From an uncultured Planctomycetaceae bacterium (GTDB taxonomy: Bacteria > Planctomycetota > UBA8742 > UBA2392): a stretch of DNA of 64,000 nucleotides. The position numbers were made by a program, and so were the translations under genes. The notes under the pieces are model-generated. The model saw nothing but the letters and a program-made list of their open reading frames with translations, was not told the origin of the DNA and made no database searches. Shown one piece after another: positions 32,865-63,306 of the stretch; position 1 is the stretch's first letter; each line of letters begins with the position of its first letter. The stretch covers positions 310-64,309 of the forward strand of contig CAZZBH010000004.1 of the NCBI GenBank assembly GCA_964652605.1, read 5' to 3'.

Positions 32865-34619
32865 TCAGGGTACAAGCCTCGCGATGGGTAGCGCGCTTTC
32901 GAGCGTTTCGTGGAACGTCAGCTTGCCCGGGCGCTCCTCAATTCCGGCTTTCTGCATTACGCTTCGCGGCTGAGCTTGCAGGCCGATGATCTGCACCAGT
33001 GTGCCCGCGCCGTCCAGCTTCTTCAGCAGGCTTTCCAGCGCGACCAGCCCGGTCGCATCCATCACCGGCACGGCGTGCATGTCCAGCATCAGCACTTGCG
33101 TGTTGCCCGCGGTCGCTATCGCGCCGATGGCTTTGTCCGCCGCGCCGAAGAACAGCGGCCCCGCAATCTCGTAAAGCACCACCCCCGGCGGCAGCTCAAT
33201 CCGCGCGACACCGTCACCGTTGCCTACTACGCGCGCGCCGCTGATCTCGGCCATACGGCGCATGAACAACAGCGCCGCCAGCACCACCCCCACGCCCACC
33301 GCGACCACCATGTCGAAAATGATCGTGAGCGAAAAGCACGTCAACAGCACCGCCACGTCGCTACGCGGCGCAACCCGCAGCATGTGCAGGAAGTGCCGCG
33401 CGTCGCTCATGTTCCACGCGACAACTAGCAGCAACGCGGCCATGCTCGCCATCGGCAGATAACCCAGCACCGGCGCCAACAGCAGCACCGCAGCCAGCAC
33501 AAACAGCGCGTGCACCACCGCGGCTACCGGTGTGCGCCCACCGGCGCGGAAGTTGGTCGCCGTGCGCGCAATCGCCCCCGTCGCCGCGAAACCGCCGAAA
33601 AACGGCGCAGCAAGGTTGCCCAGGCCCTGCCCGACAAGCTCGGCGTCCGGGTCATGGCGCGTTCCCGCCATGCCATCGGCGACCACCGCCGCCAGCAGGC
33701 TTTCAATTGCGCCCAGCGCAGCAATCGCCATCGCGGGCCCCATCAGGTCGGTCAGCAGGCTCCAGCTCAAGCCAAGCGGCGCGCCGTTCGCGCCGGGCAG
33801 GCTCCATGGCAACACCGGCAGCGGCGGCATCGGCGGTATGCCTGCGCGCGTGACGCCGTCCTGCACGTAGCTGAAGCGGCTGGCAATCGTGGCCACCGTC
33901 TGCCCGGCAAATTCGGCCAGCGCCCAAGCCGCCAGTGCGCCTATCACAATCGCCACCAACGGCCCCGGGACGCGACGCGTCACGCGCGGCCAAAGGATCA
34001 GCACCGCCAGTGTCAGCGCGCCAACGCCTGCGTCGGCCCACCCCACCGTCGGCATGGCTTGGGCTAGAGCGGCTACGCGCTCCCAGTAATGCTCGGCGGC
34101 AGGTGCGTCCAGACCCAGAAAATCCTTCACCTGCAACGTTGCGATCACCACGGCTATGCCGGCGGTAAAGCCGGTCGTCACCGGGTACGGCACAAACTGG
34201 ATCAGCTTGCCAAGCCGCGCAAACCCCATGATCGTCAACAACACGCCCGCCATCAGCGAAGCCAGCGCAAGTCCGCCCACGCCATACCTGGCTGAAACCG
34301 GCGCGAGCAGCACGACGAAGGCCGCAGTCGGGCCGCTGACGTTGAGGCGCGACCCGCCGGTCACGGCAATCAACCCGCCGGCAATGATCGCGGTGTACAA
34401 CCCGTGCTGCGGCGGAACCCCTGACGCAATTGCCAGCGCCATCGACAGCGGCAGCGCGACAATGCCGACCACCAGCCCGGCCATCACGTCGCCGCGCAGG
34501 AGTTGCAGCGAATAACCCTCGCGCAACACGCCGCGCAAAGCCACCGCAAGCGGAAACGGCTTGGCGGACGGGGCAACGGCGGGTTTGTGGCGCCCGGTGT
34601 GTCGCTTCTCGGATGTCAT
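32865..34619 (-). CDS. SulP family inorganic anion transporter with C-terminal STAS domain
   Basis: GDVMAGLVVGIVALPLSMALAIASGVPPQHGLYTAII is the SulP signature region. There are about 11 TMs, and the STAS-like C-terminus (VLMLDMHAVPVMDATGLVALESL) is present. Confidence 0.9.
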   Translation of the reverse strand: MTSEKRHTGRHKPAVAPSAKPFPLAVALRGVLREGYSLQLLRGDVMAGLVVGIVALPLSMALAIASGVPPQHGLYTAIIAGGLIAVTGGSRLNVSGPTAAFVVLLAPVSARYGVGGLALASLMAGVLLTIMGFARLGKLIQFVPYPVTTGFTAGIAVVIATLQVKDFLGLDAPAAEHYWERVAALAQAMPTVGWADAGVGALTLAVLILWPRVTRRVPGPLVAIVIGALAAWALAEFAGQTVATIASRFSYVQDGVTRAGIPPMPPLPVLPWSLPGANGAPLGLSWSLLTDLMGPAMAIAALGAIESLLAAVVADGMAGTRHDPDAELVGQGLGNLAAPFFGGFAATGAIARTATNFRAGGRTPVAAVVHALFVLAAVLLLAPVLGYLPMASMAALLLVVAWNMSDARHFLHMLRVAPRSDVAVLLTCFSLTIIFDMVVAVGVGVVLAALLFMRRMAEISGARVVGNGDGVARIELPPGVVLYEIAGPLFFGAADKAIGAIATAGNTQVLMLDMHAVPVMDATGLVALESLLKKLDGAGTLVQIIGLQAQPRSVMQKAGIEERPGKLTFHETLESALPIARLVP

Positions 34620-35029
34620 GAAAGATGGCAGTCTCAGGCGAAGCGGCTGTGCGAGACACCCGTCAGTCCGGCAACCCCCGCCGCGCAAACCACGCGGCAC
34701 GGACTGAGATTATCCGTCGCGCAGTTGCCCGCCAACCCCGTGCACATGTAGGCAGAAGACAGGAGCCCGCAGCGCAAGCGACGGGAAGGCAGGCGACCTG
34801 CAGTCAACTCGCGCTTCGTGTCTTTCCGAACGACACTGGCCTGCCGCGCGAATTGCCGGCGAGAAACTGAAAAAACTTGCGCGGTGTAAGTTGGCTTGGG
34901 GATTGGGGTTTGGTCCGGGCATTACTGCCCGGGCTGTCAGCCAATTGGCTGAATTGTATCCGCCCGTTCCTGTGTCTGAGGGCAAGTCTGTTGCCACCGA
35001 CAGCTTGCTTGCGTGAACAGGAGTGCGCC

Positions 35030-40299: not shown

Positions 40300-42099
40300 A
40301 TGCGACTTGCATTGACACTGTTGTTATTGACGGGGATGGGGTTTGCAGGCTGGGCTGGAGTCAGCTGGTCCCAGGAAGCTGAGACCGAGCTGGAAGAAAT
40401 CCGGCAGGCGCCGCGGCCAATTGACCCACGTGAGTGGCGCGTCGGCCAGTTGATCGACGACGTCAAGTTCATGGATATCACAGGCAAAGCCGGCACCCTT
40501 GCCGACTACAAGGGCAAGCTGCTGGTGGTTGCGATTACCAATGCAAGCTGCCCGATCTGCAAGCGCTTTGCTCCCTCACTCAATGACATTCACGCGGCGT
40601 ACAAAGACAGGGGCGTCGAGTTTCTATTGCTCAACCCGATGGAGCACGAATCGCTGGAGGACTGCCGCCAAGCCGTTGAGCGCTACGGGTTCACCGCCCG
40701 CTATGCGCGCGATATCAAAGCCACCATGGCGCGCGCGCTGAAGGCCGACACCACCGGCGACTGCTTTGTGCTGGATGGCGCGCGCACTCTGCGCTACCGC
40801 GGCGCGGTCAGTGACCAGTACGGTTTCGGCTACAGTCTTGACCAGCCGCGCGTCACCTATCTGCGGGACGCGCTGGACGCACTGCTTGCTGGCAACGAAG
40901 TGTTCACGCCGGCGACCTGGGCACCCGGGTGCGAGCTTGAGCTTGAGCCTGCCAAGCCCAGCGGCGACATCACCTGGCACAACCGCATCAGCCGCATCGT
41001 GCAGAACAACTGCGAATCCTGCCACCGCGACGGCGAAAACGGCCCGTTCGAGCTGACGACGTACAGGGACGTCAAGGGCAACAGCGCCATGATCAAGCGC
41101 CAGGTGCGGCAGCGATTGATGCCGCCCTGGTTTGCCAACCCAGCGCACGGCGACTGGTCCAACGACGCCAGCCTCAGCGACGCCGACCGCGAAGACTTCA
41201 TTGCCTGGATCGACAGCGGATGCCCCGAGGGCGACGCCAAGGATGCACCGCTGCCGCGCAATTGGGCCGACGGCTGGAAGATTGACAAGCCCGAAGTGGT
41301 GCTGGAAATCCCGGCCAAGGTGAAGATCAAGAAGCAGGGCAAGATCGACTACGTGCGCGTTTCGCTCACAACGAACTTCGAAGAAGACAAGTGGGTGCAG
41401 GCGATGGAAATCCGCCCCACAGCGCCACAGAACGTCCACCACGTGCTGGTGTTTCTCGAGTATCCCAAGGATCACCCACGCGCCGCGGAGCAGCCTCGCG
41501 ACCATGACGGCCTGCGCGGCTATTTCATGGGACAGGTGCCGGGTATGGGCCACGTGGTGTTCCCGCCGGGCATGGGCAAGTTCCTGCCCAAGGGCGCACG
41601 CATGCATTTCCAGATTCACTACGTGACCAACGGTGTCGAGGCCGAAGACCGCACACGCATCGGCATGACCTTCTGCAAGGAAAAACCGAAGATCGAAGTA
41701 GAAACGCGCGGCATTGCCAACCCTTTCTTCGAGATTCCGCCAGGCGCGGACAACCATGAAGTGAAGGCCATGTTCACGCTACCCAAGAAGATGCGCCTGC
41801 TTTCGCTGATGCCGCACATGCACGTGCGCGGCAAGGCCTACCGCTATGTCGCACAGTTCCCGGACGGTACAGAGCAGACACTGCTTGACGTCCCGCGCTA
41901 TGACTTCAACTGGCAGTTGCTGTACATCCTGCGCGAGCCGATTGACCTTCCCAAAGGCACCAAGATCGTCGCCACCGGCTGGTTCGACAACAGCGACAAG
42001 AACCCCGCCAACCCCGACCCAACTAAGGCGGTTCGGTTCGGCGAGCAAACCTGGGACGAAATGCAGATCGGCTACGTCAACTGGCACGCGCTTGAATAG
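40300..42099 (+). CDS. Secreted fusion: thioredoxin/redoxin-like (CPIC) + CxxCH haem-binding motif + PHM/DBH-like copper monooxygenase-like domain
   Basis: Signal peptide MRLALTLLLLTGMGFAG, LLVVAITNASCPICKRF, NNCESCHRDG, then HHVLVFLEY and MPHMHVRGKAY, which resemble the CuH (HH) and CuM (HxH) sites of copper type II ascorbate-dependent monooxygenases. Confidence 0.75.
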   Translation: MRLALTLLLLTGMGFAGWAGVSWSQEAETELEEIRQAPRPIDPREWRVGQLIDDVKFMDITGKAGTLADYKGKLLVVAITNASCPICKRFAPSLNDIHAAYKDRGVEFLLLNPMEHESLEDCRQAVERYGFTARYARDIKATMARALKADTTGDCFVLDGARTLRYRGAVSDQYGFGYSLDQPRVTYLRDALDALLAGNEVFTPATWAPGCELELEPAKPSGDITWHNRISRIVQNNCESCHRDGENGPFELTTYRDVKGNSAMIKRQVRQRLMPPWFANPAHGDWSNDASLSDADREDFIAWIDSGCPEGDAKDAPLPRNWADGWKIDKPEVVLEIPAKVKIKKQGKIDYVRVSLTTNFEEDKWVQAMEIRPTAPQNVHHVLVFLEYPKDHPRAAEQPRDHDGLRGYFMGQVPGMGHVVFPPGMGKFLPKGARMHFQIHYVTNGVEAEDRTRIGMTFCKEKPKIEVETRGIANPFFEIPPGADNHEVKAMFTLPKKMRLLSLMPHMHVRGKAYRYVAQFPDGTEQTLLDVPRYDFNWQLLYILREPIDLPKGTKIVATGWFDNSDKNPANPDPTKAVRFGEQTWDEMQIGYVNWHALE

Positions 42100-52565: not shown

Positions 52566-54002
52566 ATGAGCAAAGAGACTATCGAGGCGCTTGCCGTCCA
52601 GGAATACAAGCACGGCTGGACCAGCAACGTTGAAGTCGATCAGCTTCCGCCGGGGCTGAATGCGGACATCGTCCGCGCCCTCTCAGCCAAGAAGAACGAG
52701 CCGGAGTGGCTTCTCGAGTGGCGCCTGAAGGCATACCGCCACTGGCTTGGCATGACTGAGCCCGACTGGCAGAAGCCCAAGTACCCCAAGATTGACTACC
52801 AGGCCGTCAGCTACTACTCCGCCCCGAAGAAGAAGCCCACGCTTGAAAGCCTGGACGAGGTCGATCCCGAGCTGCTGGAGACGTTCGAGAAGCTCGGCAT
52901 GAGCCTGGACGAGGAGAAGCGGCTTACCGGCGTGGCTGTGGACGCGGTGTTTGACAGCGTCAGCGTCAAGACGACATTCCGCGAAGAGTTGAGCAAGCAG
53001 GGCATTATCTTCTGCAGCTTCAGCGAAGCCGTGCAGGATCACCCTGAGCTGGTGCAGAAGTACCTGGGCAGCGTTGTCCCCTACACCGACAACTACTTCG
53101 CGACGCTGAACAGCGCGGTGTTTTCCGATGGCAGCTTCTGCTACATCCCGCCGGGGGTGCGTTGCCCGATGGAGCTCAGCACCTACTTCCGCATCAACAG
53201 CGCGGGCACCGGGCAGTTTGAGCGCACACTGCTCATCGCCGATGAGGGCGCATACGTCAGCTACCTGGAAGGGTGCACCGCCCCGGCACGCGACGAGAAC
53301 CAGTTGCACGCTGCGGTGGTTGAGCTGGTGGCGCTGAAGGGCGCGCAGATCAAGTACAGCACCGTCCAGAATTGGTACCCCGGCGATAAGGACGGCAAGG
53401 GCGGCGTGTACAACTTCGTCACCAAGCGCGGCCGTGCCGAAGAAAACGCAAAGGTGTCGTGGACGCAGGTCGAAACCGGCAGCGCGATCACCTGGAAGTA
53501 CCCAAGCGTGATCCTCAAGGGCGACAACAGTGTCGGCGAGTTCTACAGCGTGGCAGTCACCCGCGACCGGCAGATGGCCGACACCGGCACGAAGATGATC
53601 CACATCGGCAAGAACACGACAAGCACGATCATCAGCAAAGGCATCAGCGCGGGCCACGGCGACCAGAGCTATCGCGGGCAGGTCAAGATTCTCAAGGGTG
53701 CGCACGGGGCGCGCAACTACAGCGCGTGCGACAGCCTGCTGCTGGGCGGCAACTGCGGCGCGCACACCTTTCCGTACATCGAGAGCCAGAACAGCAGCGC
53801 GGTGATTGAGCACGAAGCCAGCACCAGCAAAATCAGCGATGAGCAGATCTTTTTCCTGCGCCAGCGCGGCCTGAGCGAAGAGGACGCGGTCAGCATGATC
53901 GTAAACGGCTTCTGCAAAGACGTGCTGAGCGAGCTGCCCATGGAATTCGCGGTGGAGGCCCAGAAGCTGCTCGGGCTCAAACTCGAAGGCGCAGTTGGTT
54001 AG
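52566..54002 (+). CDS. sufB: Fe-S cluster assembly scaffold SufB
   Basis: The full-length SufB pattern: [39 protein letters not shown]. Confidence 0.95.
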
Positions 54003-54006
54003 TTCA

Positions 54007-54073
54007 CCACTGAGGCACAGAGACACAGAGTTTTGCCCGTAGTTGTCTTCTCCGTGTCTCTGTGCCTCTGTGG
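54007..54073. repeat. 24-bp-arm hairpin of CACAGAG/CACGGAG 8-nt subrepeats between sufB and sufC
   Basis: CCACTGAGGCACAGAGACACAGAG (54007..54030) pairs with CTCCGTGTCTCTGTGCCTCTGTGG (54050..54073), 22/24 complementary, with a 19-nt loop. Confidence 0.85.
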
Positions 54074-54093
54074 TTCAAAAGCAGTTCAGAGAG

Positions 54094-54846
54094 ATGACGA
54101 TGCTTGAGATACGAGACTTGCATGTGGCCATTGGCGGCACCGAGATCCTGCACGGGATCAACCTGACCGTGAACGCCGGCGAAGTGCACGCCATCATGGG
54201 CACCAACGGCTCCGGCAAAAGCACGCTGACCAAGGCAATCGCCGGCCACCCCGACTACGCCGTCACCGGTGGCGACATTCTGTTCAAGGGCCGCAGCATC
54301 CTGGAAGACGAGCCGGAGGACCGCGCCAGAGCGGGCATCTTCCTTGCGTTTCAGTACCCGGTCGAAGTGCCGGGCGTGACCAACATGTACTTCCTGCGCG
54401 CGGCACTCAACGCTCAACGCAAGTCCCGCGGCGAAGCCGAAGTCAGCGGCGCCGAGTTTCTCGCGCTGATCAAGGAGAAAGCCAAGCTGGTGGATATGGA
54501 CTCCGCGCTGCTCAACCGCAGCGTGAACGAAGGCTTCTCCGGCGGCGAAAAGAAACGCAACGAGATTCTGCAGCTTGCCGTTTTCGAGCCCGCGCTGGCT
54601 GTGCTGGACGAAACCGACAGCGGCCTGGATATTGACGCTCTCAAGACGGTAGCCGACGGTGTCAACAGCCTGCGTGACCCGAAGCGTTCATTCCTGCTGG
54701 TCACGCACTACCAGCGGCTGCTGAACCACATCAAGCCGGATCAGGTGCACGTGCTGCTCGAAGGAAAGATAGTCAAGAGCGGAGGCCCGGAGCTGGCACT
54801 GGCGCTCGAGGAGAAGGGCTACGCCTGGATAGAACAAACCGTCTGA
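54094..54846 (+). CDS. sufC: Fe-S cluster assembly ATPase SufC
   Basis: [11 protein letters not shown] start, Walker [13 protein letters not shown] signature [11 protein letters not shown], Walker [13 protein letters not shown]. The longer ORF start at 54043 only translates the hairpin repeat. Confidence 0.95.
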
Positions 54847-54923
54847 CGGTCCATCTGAACGCGAAGCGGTCTGCCAAGCAGACGTTGTCAAGCGGGCAAG
54901 CGCACAGACCGAACCAACCATCC

Positions 54924-56231
54924 ATGACCACACAAATCGAAAACTCACTCCAGGCAGCTCTTCACGCTTTCAGGCCTGAGGCGCCCGAGCCCGCATGGCT
55001 GACCGAGTTGCGCAAGGACGCAACCGACAGCTTCATCGAACTCGGAGTGCCTGGCATTCGACATGAGGAGTGGCGCTACACCAACCTCAAGCCGCTTCTG
55101 GCAGAGGAATTTGCGCCAGCTGCACCGGCGCCACTCAATGCCGCGGACATCGCAGACTTCCTGATTGACGGCGCCGATGACGTGCGGCTTGTCTTTGTCA
55201 ACGGCTTCTTCAATGCCGGGCTGAGCAAACTGCCGCAGTCGCCGGCCGGCTTGCTGGTCAAGCCGTTGTCCCAGGTGCTAGACAGCGACGAAGGCCTGCC
55301 GGGCAAGCTCGCGCGCTACGCCGATCACCATGCACAGCCCTTCACGGCGTTGAACACGGCACTGTTCACTGACGGCGCCTACATTCGCGCTGGGCAGAGT
55401 GTCGCGTTTGATACCCCCATCCACGTACTTTACGTATCGACCGCGCCGCAACTCACGGCACCGCGCACGCTGCTGCTCGCCGGCGAGGGCGCTGAGCTTC
55501 GGCTAATCGAAAGTTTTGTCGGGCTCAATGCAGCCGACAGCGGGCGGTTCGTCAATGGCGTCTCCGAAATCGCGCTGCACCAGAACGCGCACGTGCGCCA
55601 CATCCGGCTGCTGCGCGAAACGGACAAGACTTCGCACATCGGCTGGAATGAAGTGCGGCAGGACCGCGACTCGACCTACGTCGGTTTCAGCATCAGCCTT
55701 GGCGCCAAACTTGCCCGCAGCGACGTGAACGTGATGCTGACTGGCGAGGGTGCAGATTGCACCCTCAACGGCCTGGTCCTGGGCCGGAAGACCGAGCACT
55801 TTGACAACCACATCGTCGTCGATCACGTGCGGCCGCGCTGCGCCAGCCGGCAGCTTTACCGCAGCGTCGTGGACGACAACTCGCGCAGCGCGTTCAGTGG
55901 CAAGGTCATCGTCAGGCCGGGCGCCGTCGGCACCGACGCGACGCAGCAGAACAACAACCTGTTGCTGTCCGACGATGCCAGGGTCGATACCAAGCCGCAG
56001 CTCGAGATCTACTGCGACGAAGTAAAGTGCAGCCACGGCGCCACCAGCGGCCAACTGGACGCCGAAGCCATGTTCTTTCTGCGAAGCCGGGGTTTGAGCT
56101 ACGACCAGGCCCGCAACGTGCTGACGTTCGCCTTCGCCAACGACGTCATCGAGCACATCAAGGTAGGCCCGGTAAGAGAGCATCTGGAAGAACTCATGCG
56201 CCAACGCTTCCAGGGATTGCTTGAGGACTAG
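54924..56231 (+). CDS. sufD: Fe-S cluster assembly protein SufD
   Basis: Its position between sufC and sufS, and the SufB/D beta-helix C-terminal pattern (CSHGATSGQLDAEAMFFLRSRGL). ATG 54924 is preferred to TTG 54885. Confidence 0.85.
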   Translation: MTTQIENSLQAALHAFRPEAPEPAWLTELRKDATDSFIELGVPGIRHEEWRYTNLKPLLAEEFAPAAPAPLNAADIADFLIDGADDVRLVFVNGFFNAGLSKLPQSPAGLLVKPLSQVLDSDEGLPGKLARYADHHAQPFTALNTALFTDGAYIRAGQSVAFDTPIHVLYVSTAPQLTAPRTLLLAGEGAELRLIESFVGLNAADSGRFVNGVSEIALHQNAHVRHIRLLRETDKTSHIGWNEVRQDRDSTYVGFSISLGAKLARSDVNVMLTGEGADCTLNGLVLGRKTEHFDNHIVVDHVRPRCASRQLYRSVVDDNSRSAFSGKVIVRPGAVGTDATQQNNNLLLSDDARVDTKPQLEIYCDEVKCSHGATSGQLDAEAMFFLRSRGLSYDQARNVLTFAFANDVIEHIKVGPVREHLEELMRQRFQGLLED

Positions 56232-59306: not shown

Positions 59307-60371
59307 TCAGCGCGTGACCGTGATGCGGCCGGCACTGCCGGCAGTGACTTCACCGATCACCGAAGCTGCCAGTGCGTTGTGTTGCTTCAGACTGGCGACC
59401 AGGGCATCGCACTTGTCGGATGGCACGCTGATGACCATGCCGCCGCTGGTCTGCGCGTCGCACACCAGCAACTGTTCTTCGTGCGTCAGCCCCTCGGCGA
59501 AATCGATCCACTGCCTGAAGTACAGCCAGTTCTTCTTCGTGCCGCCGGGGAAGCAGCCCTGCTTCAGCAATTCCATGACTTCCGGCAGAACTGGCAGTGC
59601 ATCGAAGTGCAGCTTCATGCTCACGCCGCTCGCGTGGGCCACCTCGTGCAAGTGGCCCGCAAGGCCATACCCGGTGATGTCCGTGGCGGCACTGGCGCCG
59701 ACTTCATGAATGGCTTCGCCGCCCGGCCGATTGATCGCGGCCATGGACTGGATAGCCGGCTCAATCTGCGCTTCTGTGCGTAGTTCGCGTTTCACGGCGG
59801 TCGTCAGCACGCCTACACCCAGCGGCTTGGTAAGCACAAGCTTATCGCCCGCCTTGGCGCCGCTGTTGGACATGATCTTCTTCGGGTGCACGACGCCGGT
59901 GACGCACATGCCGTACTTCGGCTCGGCATCGTCGATCGAGTGCCCGCCGACGACAAAGATGCCGGCTTCGCCCGCCTTGTCCGCGCCCCCCTTGAGAATG
60001 GTCGCCAGCACGTCATGTCCAAGCTGCGCCAAGGGGAAGCCCACGATGTTCAGTGCGAAGATCGGCTTGGCGCCCATGGCGTAGATGTCGGAGATGGCAT
60101 TGGCGGCGGCGATCTGGCCGAACAGGTACGGGTCGTCCACGATCGGCGTGAAGAAATCCAGTGTCTGCACGACGGCCTGTTCGTCGTTCAATTGGTACAC
60201 GCAGGCATCATCGGCCCACTCGTGCCCGACAAGCACGCGGGGGTCGGTAACCTTCGGCAAACCTTGCAGGACCTGCCCGAGGTCGCTGGCTGAAAGTTTG
60301 CAGCCTCACCCGGCGCCGTGAGATAGCTGGGTGAGCCTTGGTTTGCCGTCTTTGGTCTGTGTTGTGGCCAT
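59307..60371 (-). CDS. selD: Selenide, water dikinase (selenophosphate synthetase) SelD, Sec-containing form (UGA at 60306..60308)
   Basis: From ATG 60371: [49 protein letters not shown]..., which aligns with E. coli LTQYSHGAGCGCKISPKVL. The rest is canonical (DFFTPIVDDPYLFGQIAAANAISDIYAMGAKP). Confidence 0.9.
60267..60288 (-). promoter_or_regulatory. Candidate SECIS hairpin of selD
   Basis: The RNA CAG(C)GACCU-CGGGC-AGGUCCUG forms 8 bp with one bulge and a G-rich loop, starting 18 nt after the UGA. An alternative 5-bp hairpin, GGCUG-N8-CAGCC, lies immediately after the UGA. Confidence 0.45.
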
Positions 60372-60519
60372 GGAATCTCCCGCCGGCGTAGCATACCAAC
60401 ATCGGCTTTCCGCGGCAGATTCCAGTGGCGGGCGCGGTTGTACGGCAAATCTGGTTGCAACTTTGCGAGGAGACGCAATAATCCAAAGCCTCGGCGTGAA
60501 CCCTTGCGGAAATCGACCC

Positions 60520-61701
60520 ATGCGAATCTGGTTCGTTTCGCTGGCGCTTTGCGTCGGATGCCTGCACGCCCAGCCCTATTCTTCTGCCCCGCTGGTTCCC
60601 CAGGATCTGCAGATTCATGCCGAGGGCGCATTCGGTTACGACAGCAACGTGCGCCTGTCCGCGGACGACGAGCAGGCAAGCTACTTCTTGCAGCAGCGCC
60701 TGCGCGCCGGGTATGGGCTGGAACTGCCCTTGAGCCGCCTGTTTGTGCTCGGCGAAGTGTATGGCCGCTGGCCAACGCAGCATCCCGGCACCAGCACCTG
60801 GTTTGCCGGCGCGCGCGTGGGCTGGGCCGCCGGGCAAGCCGGTGACACGATCTTCGGCGGGCTGGACCTTGGCGCTAACGTAGAGAAGAGACACGTGTAT
60901 GAAATCTTTGGCCCCATCACGCGGCAGGAAGGCACCCGCCGCGCGTGGTACGACGCACGGGCCTGGTTTGACCTGTCCCTGATGCCGTTTCGACTGCAAA
61001 CCCGTGCCTGGATTGCCGCCAATAACCTGTCCGAGCGCACAAAGGGCCGAAGCTGGGACTTGCGCGCCTTGCCCGCATTCGAGCCCGCGCAGGGCATCGG
61101 CGCGGGCAGCATGGATCACACCCGCGCCGGCGGATCTTTGTGGGTGGCCGCCGAGCCTGTGGCCGGTCTGGCGTTCGGGCCCTACGTCTGGTTTGAGCAC
61201 ACGCAGTTCCATTACGACGCGACACTGACCCTTAGCGGCGAGGTCACTGACAACTATCTCGACTTCCAGCGCCTTGAGCTGGGGACGCGCATGTCCGCTG
61301 ACATCGGACCTGTCACGCTGGAGAACCGGCTTCACTTCCGCCGCCAACTCAGCATGGACCCTGAGGATCAGGGCGCGCTCGACTACGACCAGTGGGGATG
61401 GGCTGCCGGAGTGGGCCTTGAGTTCGCACCGGTACGAGGAAAGTTGTCGTGGGAATTCTGGCGCCGGGACTATCGGCACCTGACCGCCCTGACAGAGCCG
61501 TTCGCAGCCGGCACAATCTTTGCCGGGTCAATTCCGCAACTCGAGGAAGATGGCCGGCAGCTTGCGGTCGAAATGCTGGGAAGCCCGGTGGAACATGTCA
61601 GCACCGGCTTTCGCTACCAGTGGAACCAGCGGCGAAGCAATGCCAGGACGCTTGCCTACCACCAGCACGAGATCAGCATTCTGCTGCAGCTTGACTGGTA
61701 A
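60520..61701 (+). CDS. Outer-membrane beta-barrel protein (hypothetical porin-like)
   Basis: ATG 60520 gives the signal peptide MRIWFVSLALCVGCLHAQ. The sequence has an alternating amphipathic beta pattern with Tyr/Trp girdles, and the C-terminus ...ISILLQLDW ends in an aromatic residue as in OMP beta-signals. Confidence 0.7.
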   Translation: MRIWFVSLALCVGCLHAQPYSSAPLVPQDLQIHAEGAFGYDSNVRLSADDEQASYFLQQRLRAGYGLELPLSRLFVLGEVYGRWPTQHPGTSTWFAGARVGWAAGQAGDTIFGGLDLGANVEKRHVYEIFGPITRQEGTRRAWYDARAWFDLSLMPFRLQTRAWIAANNLSERTKGRSWDLRALPAFEPAQGIGAGSMDHTRAGGSLWVAAEPVAGLAFGPYVWFEHTQFHYDATLTLSGEVTDNYLDFQRLELGTRMSADIGPVTLENRLHFRRQLSMDPEDQGALDYDQWGWAAGVGLEFAPVRGKLSWEFWRRDYRHLTALTEPFAAGTIFAGSIPQLEEDGRQLAVEMLGSPVEHVSTGFRYQWNQRRSNARTLAYHQHEISILLQLDW

Positions 61702-61809: not shown

Positions 61810-62145
61810 CTAGCCCGTTGAGGTGCCGCCGACCGGCAATCCGGCTTCGGCCCATTCCGCGATGCCGCCGCGGTAGTCCCAGATGTTTTTGTAGCCAAGT
61901 TCGGCGACCGCACGGGCCGCCTTGGTGGACGCGTCTCACGAATAGCCTGCTCAGTAGAATACCAGCATGGCCTGCTTGTCCGCCGGAAGGCCCTTGCCCT
62001 GCGCGGCATCCGGCACAGACAGCAGCGTGGCGCCCTCGATGTGCCGGGCCCCGTAGCTTCCCGGGCCGCGGTTGTCGTAAAGTCCGTCAACCTTGCCGTC
62101 GTCGAGCGCGGATTTGAGGTCGTTGATCTTGATTTCACGTACCAT
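61810..62145 (-). CDS. Single-domain rhodanese sulfurtransferase with two in-frame UGA codons (61951..61953 and 61936..61938); candidate selenoprotein or decaying gene
   Basis: RBS GGAGGAAG before ATG 62145. The protein reads MVREIKINDLK...ARHIEGA...KQAMLVFY-U-AGYS-U-DASTKAARAVAELGYKNIWDYRGGIAEWAEAGLPV...TAG. The first UGA sits at the catalytic Cys position. Confidence 0.7.
61895..61925 (-). promoter_or_regulatory. Candidate SECIS hairpin of the rhodanese gene
   Basis: The RNA CCAA-GGCGGC-CCGUGCG-GUCGCC-(GAAC)-UUGG has a 6-bp upper stem (one G-U), a 7-nt loop containing GU, and a 4-bp lower stem. It starts 10 nt after UGA-2 and 25 nt after UGA-1. Confidence 0.45.
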
Positions 62146-62355
62146 TGGCTTCCTCCGGGGGTAGAACGGCCCATCTGCGGCCTTTATTCGACCATGCTGG
62201 TCCGAAATGGCAAACACACGCGCCGATGCGTACACTGGCTAGTTGCTTGTACCTTAGTATCCTCCGCACCGCCCGCCGACGGTAGATTTCATATCGTCAG
62301 CATCTAAGATCAACGTGCAGGATGCCAAGCGCGCAGACATTGACCGGGAGTATCG

Positions 62356-62586
62356 ATGCCAGATCCGAGTGAAAAGTGGGAAGACAACGTGCCGGGTCCG
62401 TGGTACGTGGACAAGAGCTGCATCTTCTGCGGGCTGTGCCCGCAGTTGGCACCCAACAACTTTCGTGAGTCCGAAGACGGCACCCACGACCTTGTGTACA
62501 AGCAGCCCGACAGCGACGAGGAAAAATCGCAGTGCGAGGATGCCGCGGCCCAGTGCCCCGTGCAGGCCATCGGCGCCGACGGGTAA
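62356..62586 (+). CDS. fdx: Small single-cluster ferredoxin
   Basis: 76 aa with YVDKSCIFCGLCPQLAP ... QCEDAAAQCPVQAI, the cysteine pattern of small [3Fe-4S]/[4Fe-4S] ferredoxins. Confidence 0.85.
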   Translation: MPDPSEKWEDNVPGPWYVDKSCIFCGLCPQLAPNNFRESEDGTHDLVYKQPDSDEEKSQCEDAAAQCPVQAIGADG

Positions 62587-62688: not shown

Positions 62689-63306
62689 ATGGCTGCTGCC
62701 GACATCGCACCGGTTGTTCTTGAGCAGATCCCGCTTACACAGGATCGCCACTACGATTTCGCCGCTGTGTTCGGCAACGCGAACTCCGTCGAGCTTGAAC
62801 TTGGCGTCGGCAAGGGGCGCTTCCTGATCCAGCAGGCGCAGGCTTACCCCGGCGTCAACTTCGTCGGCGTGGAGTGGGCAAGCCGCTACTACCGCCTGGT
62901 CGCAGAGCGCGCGGCAAGGCGCAACCTGGCCAACCTGAGGATGCTGCGCGACGACGCGGCTCACGTCGTGCACCATACGCTGGCGGAATGCTCCATCACT
63001 GCAATGCACATCTACTTCCCCGACCCGTGGCCCAAGGCCAGACACCACAAGCGCCGGCTTATCCAGCCGCCGTTTGCGCAGGCGGCCGCGCAGGCAATCA
63101 AGGACGGCGGCAAAGTATGTCTGGCGACCGACCACGAGGACTACGCCGTGCAGATGGAAGCCGTGTTCAATGCGAGCGCCGATTTCGAGCAGACATTCCG
63201 GGCAATCGGCGAGCAGGCGCCCGAGGGGGTCACCAACTGGGAGGTCCGCTTCCGCCGAGAGGGCAAGACCATCCACAAGTTTGAGTTCCAGCGCGTAGTC
63301 CGCTGA
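62689..63306 (+). CDS. trmB: tRNA (guanine-N7)-methyltransferase TrmB
   Basis: SAM motif LELGVGKGRFL and the hallmark IYFPDPWPKARHHKRRL. Confidence 0.9.
   Translation: MAAADIAPVVLEQIPLTQDRHYDFAAVFGNANSVELELGVGKGRFLIQQAQAYPGVNFVGVEWASRYYRLVAERAARRNLANLRMLRDDAAHVVHHTLAECSITAMHIYFPDPWPKARHHKRRLIQPPFAQAAAQAIKDGGKVCLATDHEDYAVQMEAVFNASADFEQTFRAIGEQAPEGVTNWEVRFRREGKTIHKFEFQRVVR

Follow-up and report, generated by a model that had tools for sequence, protein, structure and literature searches.

The 64,000-nucleotide stretch of DNA analysed here (hereafter the window, meaning that whole stretch) comes from an uncultured Planctomycetaceae bacterium and carries, on its minus strand, a rhodanese gene with two in-frame UGA codons five codons apart in the active-site loop. 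We consider it quite probable that the product is a cytosolic, single-domain rhodanese of the C-x4-C-x2-S type in which both loop cysteines (Cys) are now selenocysteine (Sec), with one selenocysteine insertion sequence (SECIS) for the two codons and with the two Sec residues acting as a redox-active diselenol pair. The evidence comes from the conservation of both UGAs, from the selection acting downstream of them, from a graded series of Cys and Sec relatives and from a single conserved hairpin; coordinates of all features are collected in Table 1.

Read from the ATG at 62145, the gene gives MVREIK...QAMLVFY-TGA-AGYS-TGA-DASTKAARAVAELGYKNIWDYRGGIAEWAEAGLPVGGTSTG-TAG, with the TAG at 61812..61810 and DASTKAARAVAELGYKNIWDYRGGIAEWAEAGLPVGGTSTG comprising 41 sense codons; the product in full is MVREIK...VFY-U65-AGYS-U70-DAST...TSTG. 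A preliminary description of this DNA had listed the same in-frame order of AGYS, second TGA, 41 sense codons and TAG, and re-reading the minus-strand sequence agreed with it. That description had also placed the first TGA where the catalytic Cys of a rhodanese belongs, and alignment to PDB entries 3NHV and 6MXV and to C-x4-C and C-x4-U relatives leads to the same assignment: in 6MXV, 3NHV and about 100 homologues, the residue aligned to UGA-1 is the catalytic Cys that opens the active-site loop after the β-strand (VFY-C). With U written as C, the 111-aa product matches the Pfam Rhodanese domain PF00581 (E=6e-14; 52.7 bits, with a cutoff of 22.2) over residues 8-100, corresponding to positions 3-101 of the 102 in the profile. 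The Pfam domain extends past both stops, and only read-through of the two UGAs gives it in full. Translation most likely begins at ATG 62145, and not at the GTG at 62235 that opens the mechanically called open reading frame (ORF), because the ATG is preceded by GGAGG and every homologue begins at that Met.

To place the gene among its relatives, we collected 19 loci with a U-x4-U loop: 5 in Planctomycetota metagenome-assembled genomes (MAGs), 9 close metagenome loci and 5 found via truncated products. Removal of duplicates left 14 different sequences; the five of the 19 loci that have taxonomy are those in Planctomycetota MAGs. In these DNA-level searches, TGA stood at both positions in all 14 non-redundant homologues, within the loop motif FY-U-[AS]G[YR][STDG]-U-[DN][AS]ST. 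Because both TGAs recur at the same positions in this set, the double-TGA pattern is, as judged from the alignments, not due to chance. Amino acid identity to the window protein was 52-75% in the N-terminal half and 72-87% after UGA-2. The mean ratio of non-synonymous to synonymous change (pN/pS) was 0.53 upstream of UGA-1, 0.56 in the stretch separating the two UGAs and 0.33 downstream of UGA-2, and protein constraint past both stops is therefore at least equal to that before them, as the preliminary description had proposed when it stated that coding constraint continues beyond both codons. On these comparisons, the gene is an intact, conserved Planctomycetota rhodanese and not a broken gene.

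Searches at the protein level gave a different view of the same clade. They found ten close homologues, each 63-64 aa long and ending exactly at UGA-1, and the only homologue with a GenBank annotation that we retrieved, MBX3459754.1, is a 63-aa "hypothetical protein". The window protein scored above the cutoff of no NCBIfam model. This apparent double-selenoprotein clade has been missed in annotation because database products are cut at 63-64 aa and no NCBIfam model captures the gene.

The loop itself belongs to a recognizable type. When the 41-aa segment after UGA-2 served as query in an exhaustive HMMER search, the matches fell into two clean classes, one with 26 residues from the Cys to the GG..W motif (the classical C-x4-R[ST] rhodaneses) and the other with 28 (VVYCxxxxCxAS(T)xxAA). 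The window loop is of the C-x4-C-x2-S type, with the second Sec five residues after the first, then x-[AS]-[ST], and with two residues more than C-x4-R[ST] loops. The loop of BH2092 of Bacillus halodurans (PDB 3NHV and 3O3W), YCWGPACNGATKAA, aligns without gaps with FYUAGYSUDASTKAA. The preliminary description had noted a loop two residues longer than in C-x4-R-S rhodaneses; the measurement was right, but the length is not a peculiarity, since it is normal in the C-x4-C-x2-S subfamily (3NHV), and in our alignments the longer loop is a trait of this abundant group. The same description's remark that Arg is common at the loop position of the second UGA agrees with the alignment of that position to the Arg of classical C-x4-R loops.

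Within the subfamily, Cys and Sec replace each other at both loop positions, relatives being C-x4-C, C-x4-U or U-x4-U. The distant metagenome loci fell into three groups, namely a C-x4-U clade (VVYC[AS]SPT-U-HAS), many C-x4-C sequences and a few classical ones (CKGGSRS). The second loop position is Cys in hundreds of homologues and is the sole Sec in the separate, widespread C-x4-U clade, which comprises loci L015, L017, L019, L023-L025, L028-L031 and L053-L058 from soil and other metagenomes; the soil members are 31-39% identical to the window protein. Two related genomes show a direct Sec/Cys swap at this position, as the tandem paralogues that precede the U-x4-U gene in loci L002 and L013 differ in just this way (Table 1).

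A search with a C-x4-U protein yielded 1562 homologues. Among the best 120 of these, 61 had a C..C loop, 31 had an S..S loop and none had a mixed loop (C..S or S..C); 10 were cut at the second-position UGA (70 aa), 7 were C-x4-W, 1 was C-x4-R, and in 10 the motif was of another kind or absent. In the single C-x4-W entry that was checked (L058), the W is a TGA translated as Trp by the gene caller. Hundreds of C-x4-U relatives are cut at 70 aa or mistranslated with Trp in this manner. The all-or-none covariation of C..C and S..S, our best evidence on this point, suggests that the two loop positions function as a pair, presumably a redox pair. Because of this covariation and of the series C-x4-C, C-x4-U, U-x4-U, the second loop residue is most likely a working partner of the catalytic residue in a large, uncharacterised subfamily, again as a redox pair, which gives a concrete hypothesis on what C-x4-C-x2-S rhodaneses do. 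In an unbootstrapped neighbour-joining tree, the U-x4-U clade was monophyletic and had the tandem paralogues as its sister group, while the C-x4-U sequences from soil branched elsewhere among C-x4-C rhodaneses. This placement suggests, without proving the order, that Sec appeared at the second position first and at the first position later.

We next consider the RNA signal. In the bacterial SECIS (bSECIS) model, the apical loop has 3-9 nt with a G within the first two nucleotides, the stem has 4-16 bp, the distance from the UGA to the apical loop is 16-37 nt and the minimum free energy (MFE) is -7.5 kcal/mol or lower (PMC13188914). A candidate hairpin downstream of UGA-2 agrees with this model, having a 5-nt loop (CGUGN), a stem of 5-7 bp and an apical loop whose start is 21 nt downstream of UGA-2 and 36 nt downstream of UGA-1; the model allows both spacings. 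In 12 of 12 U-x4-U sequences, Ala-Ala-Arg is encoded by GCG GCC CGT (+33..+41 from UGA-1) and, with two further sequences added, the third positions of codons 76-80 are nearly invariant. This is the only frozen synonymous run in the coding sequence (permutation p=0.00095); other four-fold sites, including those of codons 66 and 72-75, have an entropy of 0.9-1.9 bits.

Structure prediction pointed to the same place. RNAalifold returned a single consensus hairpin with a 5-bp stem (columns 35-39 with 45-49) and the loop CGUGN, and the window hairpin is also present in the centroid fold. Across the U-x4-U orthologues, the 5-bp core is paired in 68 of 70 cells, and CGUGN was apical in 40-nt local folds of all 14 sequences (free energy -8.2 to -15.1 kcal/mol). 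The preliminary description had drawn a longer, interrupted hairpin; this is present in the sequence, but its outer half, the CCAAG/CUUGG helix, is not conserved (65.7% of cells paired across orthologues) and only the inner part is kept. When every hairpin satisfying relaxed bSECIS criteria was enumerated in all 14 sequences, the only recurrent one was that at 61921..61903, found in 13 of 14.

The single-Sec relatives carry a similar element. In the C-x4-U clade, the 5' arm of the hairpin lies in the same columns and the UGA is followed at 21 nt by the start of a CG[UG]G loop; the soil members have a 6-bp stem and an 8-nt loop with one compensatory C-G to U-A pair, and covariation in the clade is weakly positive (44 of 500 shuffles reach the observed score). 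In the C-x4-U paralogue of L002, a Planctomycetota-type 5-bp stem with the loop CGUGC was seen by eye in the same place. By position and loop sequence, the U-x4-U hairpin is homologous to the SECIS of the C-x4-U relatives. As there is a single conserved hairpin and both spacings are within 16-37 nt, our best model, which we regard as likely, is that one SECIS, ancestral to the second position, serves both UGAs. The preliminary description had suggested a U-x4-U site with one SECIS, and this suggestion is supported by the conserved TGAs, the Sec/Cys pairs, the downstream selection and the one hairpin that fits both codons. One hairpin apparently acts for two UGAs at different distances, with single-Sec relatives keeping the same hairpin, and the long-standing question of how much spacing bacterial SECIS elements tolerate becomes directly testable with a 336-nt gene.

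Several observations weigh against this interpretation. Covariation among the U-x4-U sequences is essentially nil, as pairs are either invariant or change from G-C to G-U and shuffle controls are not exceeded. The 77-nt region as a whole does not exceed shuffled sequence in stability (z=0.68), so that thermodynamics alone does not flag the hairpin, and one lineage (L049) breaks two of the five core pairs and leans on a gained lower helix. The 36-nt spacing of UGA-1 is at the extreme of the 16-37-nt range. In E. coli fdhF, decoding is reportedly strongly dependent on the UGA-to-SECIS distance (work attributed to Heider et al. 1992 and Liu et al. 1998), and efficient decoding of UGA-1 from 36 nt is therefore not guaranteed. 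In addition, ARAGORN found no tRNA-Sec within the 64-kb window, neither SelA nor SelB was seen among the ten size-matched window ORFs scanned, and the gene neighbourhoods offer only weak hints as to function.

Some of these points would be accommodated by an arrangement with two signals, in which the conserved hairpin serves UGA-2 only and UGA-1 depends on a second, weakly conserved or non-canonical element, either overlapping UGA-2 or formed by a lineage-specific lower stem. We consider this arrangement unlikely. The spacing of UGA-1 at the bSECIS limit, the strict spacing that E. coli is said to require and a UUCGUG/CACGAA-type stem across UGA-2 in several sequences are consistent with it, but no second recurrent hairpin dedicated to UGA-1 emerged from the enumeration in the 14 U-x4-U sequences, where each alternative occurred in at most two, and the synonymous sites between UGA-1 and the hairpin (codons 66 and 72-75) are, by the entropies given above, free to vary.

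Under the shared-SECIS model, the hairpin at 61921..61903 would be the ancestral SECIS of the second position, 21 nt from UGA-2, and UGA-1, which lies 15 nt before UGA-2 and is 36 nt from the loop, would use the same hairpin within tolerated spacing. SelB with Sec-tRNA, bound to the hairpin, would decode UGA-1 while the hairpin is about 31 nt downstream, and a second SelB complex would decode UGA-2 five codons later, at a near-canonical distance. In the protein, Sec65 would be the nucleophile that attacks a sulfane-sulfur or selenium donor and Sec70 its resolving partner, giving a selenenylselenide across the six-residue loop, and the Se-Se form would be re-reduced by an external reductant. 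Tentatively, we extend this to a fuller proposal: that one short SECIS natively serves both UGAs (at 21 and 36 nt), that the second Sec was gained via the pre-existing SECIS and that a catalytic selenenylselenide possibly mobilises selenium for the selenophosphate synthetase SelD. If true, the gene would be a natural test bed for the tolerance of SelB to the UGA-to-SECIS distance outside E. coli.

The main functional rival keeps both Sec residues but has the pair chelate a soft metal or metalloid (Hg, As, Cu or Se) for detoxification or sensing. Rhodanese-fold arsenate reductases exist, an anionic selenolate in place of a cationic Arg would argue against anionic substrates such as thiosulfate, and one C-x4-U locus lies beside MerR and YHS genes on a conjugative element. 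The U-x4-U loci, by contrast, are without metal-resistance genes, their conserved neighbours being ferredoxin, TrmB and SelD, and the neighbourhoods of C-x4-U genes are heterogeneous; chelation is accordingly an improbable role in our assessment, and we retain the redox pair as the preferred function.

Sec decoding in this organism was assessed from the window itself. TGA is the stop codon of 15 of the 34 long ORFs in the window, SelD among them, and is not reassigned in the source genome. SelD, encoded 1.4 kb from the rhodanese gene, is itself a predicted selenoprotein: mechanical ORF calling cuts selD into pieces of 71 and 317 aa, its in-frame UGA is kept in 4 orthologous loci and AIRS and AIRS_C domains were found in SelD of orthologous loci. 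Since SelD carries an in-frame UGA, the organism should decode Sec, and SelD as a predicted selenoprotein would imply that the Sec machinery (selA, selB and selC) is present in the genome. A candidate SelD hairpin, read by eye and not the MFE fold in every genome, has its sequence kept in five genomes (the window, L001, L008, L012 and L049), and its loop shares the CG[GU]G type with that of the rhodanese hairpin. A scan of the window at Rfam gathering thresholds returned two tRNAs only and no SECIS family.

These observations bear on the idea that the UGAs are reassigned or read through as Trp, Gly or Cys, neither being Sec. Some gene callers do give the homologous TGA as Trp, but the use of TGA as a stop in the window, the alignment of both codons only with Cys, the SECIS-like hairpin with frozen synonymous sites downstream and the classical Sec codon of SelD leave this idea very little probability. 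Least probable of all, and refuted by the comparative data, is the alternative offered in the preliminary description, an inactivated gene in which a recent CGA(Arg) to TGA nonsense change produced UGA-2 in a rhodanese with Cys or a single Sec; the same holds for a sequencing error at this codon. Classical C-x4-R loops do have their Arg aligned with the second TGA, and one homologue in the C-x4-U clade has Arg there. A check of related genomes, however, found TGA at this codon in 14 of 14 non-redundant orthologues, which come from independent assemblies. Furthermore, pN/pS downstream is as low as 0.33, and the residue at this position is Cys in hundreds of homologues and the only Sec of the protein in a separate clade.

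Rhodanese selenoproteins have been on record since 2005 (PMC1088965), and a UxU rhodanese-related sulfurtransferase from Deltaproteobacteria symbionts of Olavius was described in 2007 (Zhang & Gladyshev, PMC1976440). A 2026 review lists five rhodanese forms, with two Sec only in TsoB (PMC13188914), which is entered there as a protein resembling a rhodanese/DsbD fusion, its motif being UxxxxU (NF045694; Haft & Tolstoy 2025). Thus, the preliminary description was right that Sec rhodaneses are a known family, and its view that two UGAs in one loop are unusual holds less well in light of the UxU protein of 2007 and the TsoB motif of 2025. Double-Sec rhodanese loops are already known; the stand-alone, cytosolic U-x4-U rhodanese of Planctomycetota is new.

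TsoB is among the closest known systems. As far as the review's listing describes it, TsoB shares with the window protein two Sec residues in a UxxxxU arrangement in the rhodanese domain (U65-AGYS-U70 in the window protein), and its model NF045694 is the best NCBIfam match of the window protein, scoring 52 bits (E=3e-14) over the loop-bearing half, residues 51-108. The cutoff of NF045694 is 805 bits, however, and the match covers only positions 102-159 of a profile of about 572 positions with a DsbD-like membrane part, whereas the window protein is a 111-aa stand-alone cytosolic domain. From the table of the review and the hidden Markov model match, we infer that the two U positions correspond residue by residue. 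By these comparisons, the window protein would work like the rhodanese domain of TsoB but is not a TsoB. Two other proteins, P0025 (700 aa) and P0105 (548 aa), contain two or three tandem C-x4-C rhodanese domains (VVYCKGKECTDSHH), to which a multi-pass membrane domain carrying a CGC motif is fused at the C-terminus. Both have TsoB as their best NCBIfam match, yet they score 122 and 86 bits against the cutoff of 805 and were rejected as TsoB; the two may represent rhodanese-membrane redox fusions in an all-Cys, analogous version.

As in the UxU rhodanese (PMC1976440), the second Sec arose near the first, so that both share a downstream region, but the UxU and C-x-U (LYCAU, NF041203) proteins differ from the U-x4-U protein in spacing and loop, and the window protein is not a member of NF041203 (rhodanese_LYCAU; 37.3 bits against a cutoff of 115). 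BH2092, an entry from structural genomics, has an identical loop length and pattern but carries Cys in both places, and our literature search turned up neither a published function for BH2092 nor functional work on CX4C rhodaneses. The C-x4-U rhodaneses share the loop, Sec at the second position and a hairpin whose CG[UG]G loop starts 21 nt on; they differ in having Cys at the catalytic position and, in the soil clade, the 6-bp stem and 8-nt loop given above. Going by motif only, they may be the UxxS 'form 1' of the review (PMC13188914).

Table 1 Features of the window and of related loci (positions without a prefix refer to the window; L-numbers denote other loci)
Feature	Position	Strand	Remarks
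Rhodanese selenoprotein coding sequence (predicted), complete	61810..62145	minus	111 codons + TAG; Pfam PF00581 match, same Met in orthologues
UGA-1 (putative Sec65)	61951..61953	minus	Position of the canonical catalytic Cys of rhodaneses
UGA-2 (putative Sec70)	61936..61938	minus	Second Cys position of the C-x4-C loop; Arg position in classical C-x4-R loops
Candidate shared SECIS	61903..61921	minus	7-bp stem GGCGGCC/GGUCGCC; loop CGUGC 61914..61910; conserved 5-bp core 61919..61905
Extended lower stem (CCAA/UUGG) in the source genome	61895..61925	minus	Outer part of the hairpin first described; not conserved
SelD (selenophosphate synthetase), itself a predicted selenoprotein	59307..60371	minus	HGAG-U-GCK, TGA 60306..60308
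Candidate SelD SECIS	60270..60284	minus	GACCU-CGGGC-AGGUC; loop starts 26 nt after the SelD UGA
456-aa ORF between rhodanese and SelD	60331-61701	+	Convergent; no Pfam match; ends ...LLQLDW
Ferredoxin, 76 aa, single-cluster 4Fe-4S	62356..62586	+	Pfam Fer4_13, E=7e-17; divergent from rhodanese
TrmB-type methyltransferase	62689-63306	+	Usually beyond ferredoxin; conserved block divergent from rhodanese
Tandem paralogue just upstream of U-x4-U gene	L002:2653-2967	+	C-x4-U, FYCTEPT-U-PASSKAAR
Tandem paralogue just upstream of U-x4-U gene	L013:1017-1451	+	C-x4-C, FYCTDPDCPASAKAAR

To describe the genomic setting, we compared the native context of the rhodanese gene across the orthologous loci. A ferredoxin gene lies upstream in every locus with enough flanking sequence, with 77-95% identity between loci, making it much more conserved than the rhodanese itself. 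A second ferredoxin copy (approximately 53-55% identity) is present in L002, L004 and L013, among others. In one sub-lineage, a DUF302 protein is encoded between the ferredoxin and the U-x4-U rhodanese (L007:3508-4008; L009:2398-2829 and L006:178-615, both on the minus strand).

On the other side, at least five lineages have SelD 1.5-3.5 kb downstream of the rhodanese, and the genes in the interval differ from one to another. In the window this interval holds the 456-aa ORF, which looks like an outer-membrane beta-barrel protein, judging by its C-terminal aromatic residue. It is not at the corresponding position of the orthologous loci, where other genes are found, the intervening gene encoding a 427-aa protein or a protein of 690-760 aa; the 690-760-aa neighbours scanned (L002 and L012) gave weak Pfam matches to prenyltransferase or terpene-cyclase repeats only.

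The conserved neighbours may simply reflect gene order within one family. Two speculations can be attached to them, namely that the ferredoxin re-reduces the Se-Se form and that the rhodanese hands selenium to SelD. Rhodanese-bound perselenide is said to support SelD in vitro (Ogasawara et al. 2001).

The C-x4-U clade has heterogeneous neighbourhoods, with an extracytoplasmic function (ECF) sigma factor and a 241-aa protein in one case, TauE in another, and MerR and YHS genes with a split Redoxin gene in a third. The last of these is in L053 (5395-5976, plus strand), where adjacent genes of 73 and 116 aa beside the C-x4-U rhodanese both match Redoxin/AhpC-TSA; they look like a single peroxiredoxin-like gene interrupted by an in-frame stop, probably a further selenoprotein missed in annotation. 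The L053 contig carries, in addition to MerR and YHS, genes for a relaxase and a type IV secretion system (T4SS) coupling protein.

Other genes of the window were recorded in passing. A SUF Fe-S assembly cluster (52566-56231, plus strand) lies approximately 3 kb from SelD; it has two genes of the SufB/D type that flank a probable SufC. The gene at 32865-34700 (minus strand) encodes a SulP/STAS sulfate permease, and that at 40300-42099 (plus strand) a protein with an AhpC/TSA domain that, at 599 aa, is unusually long.

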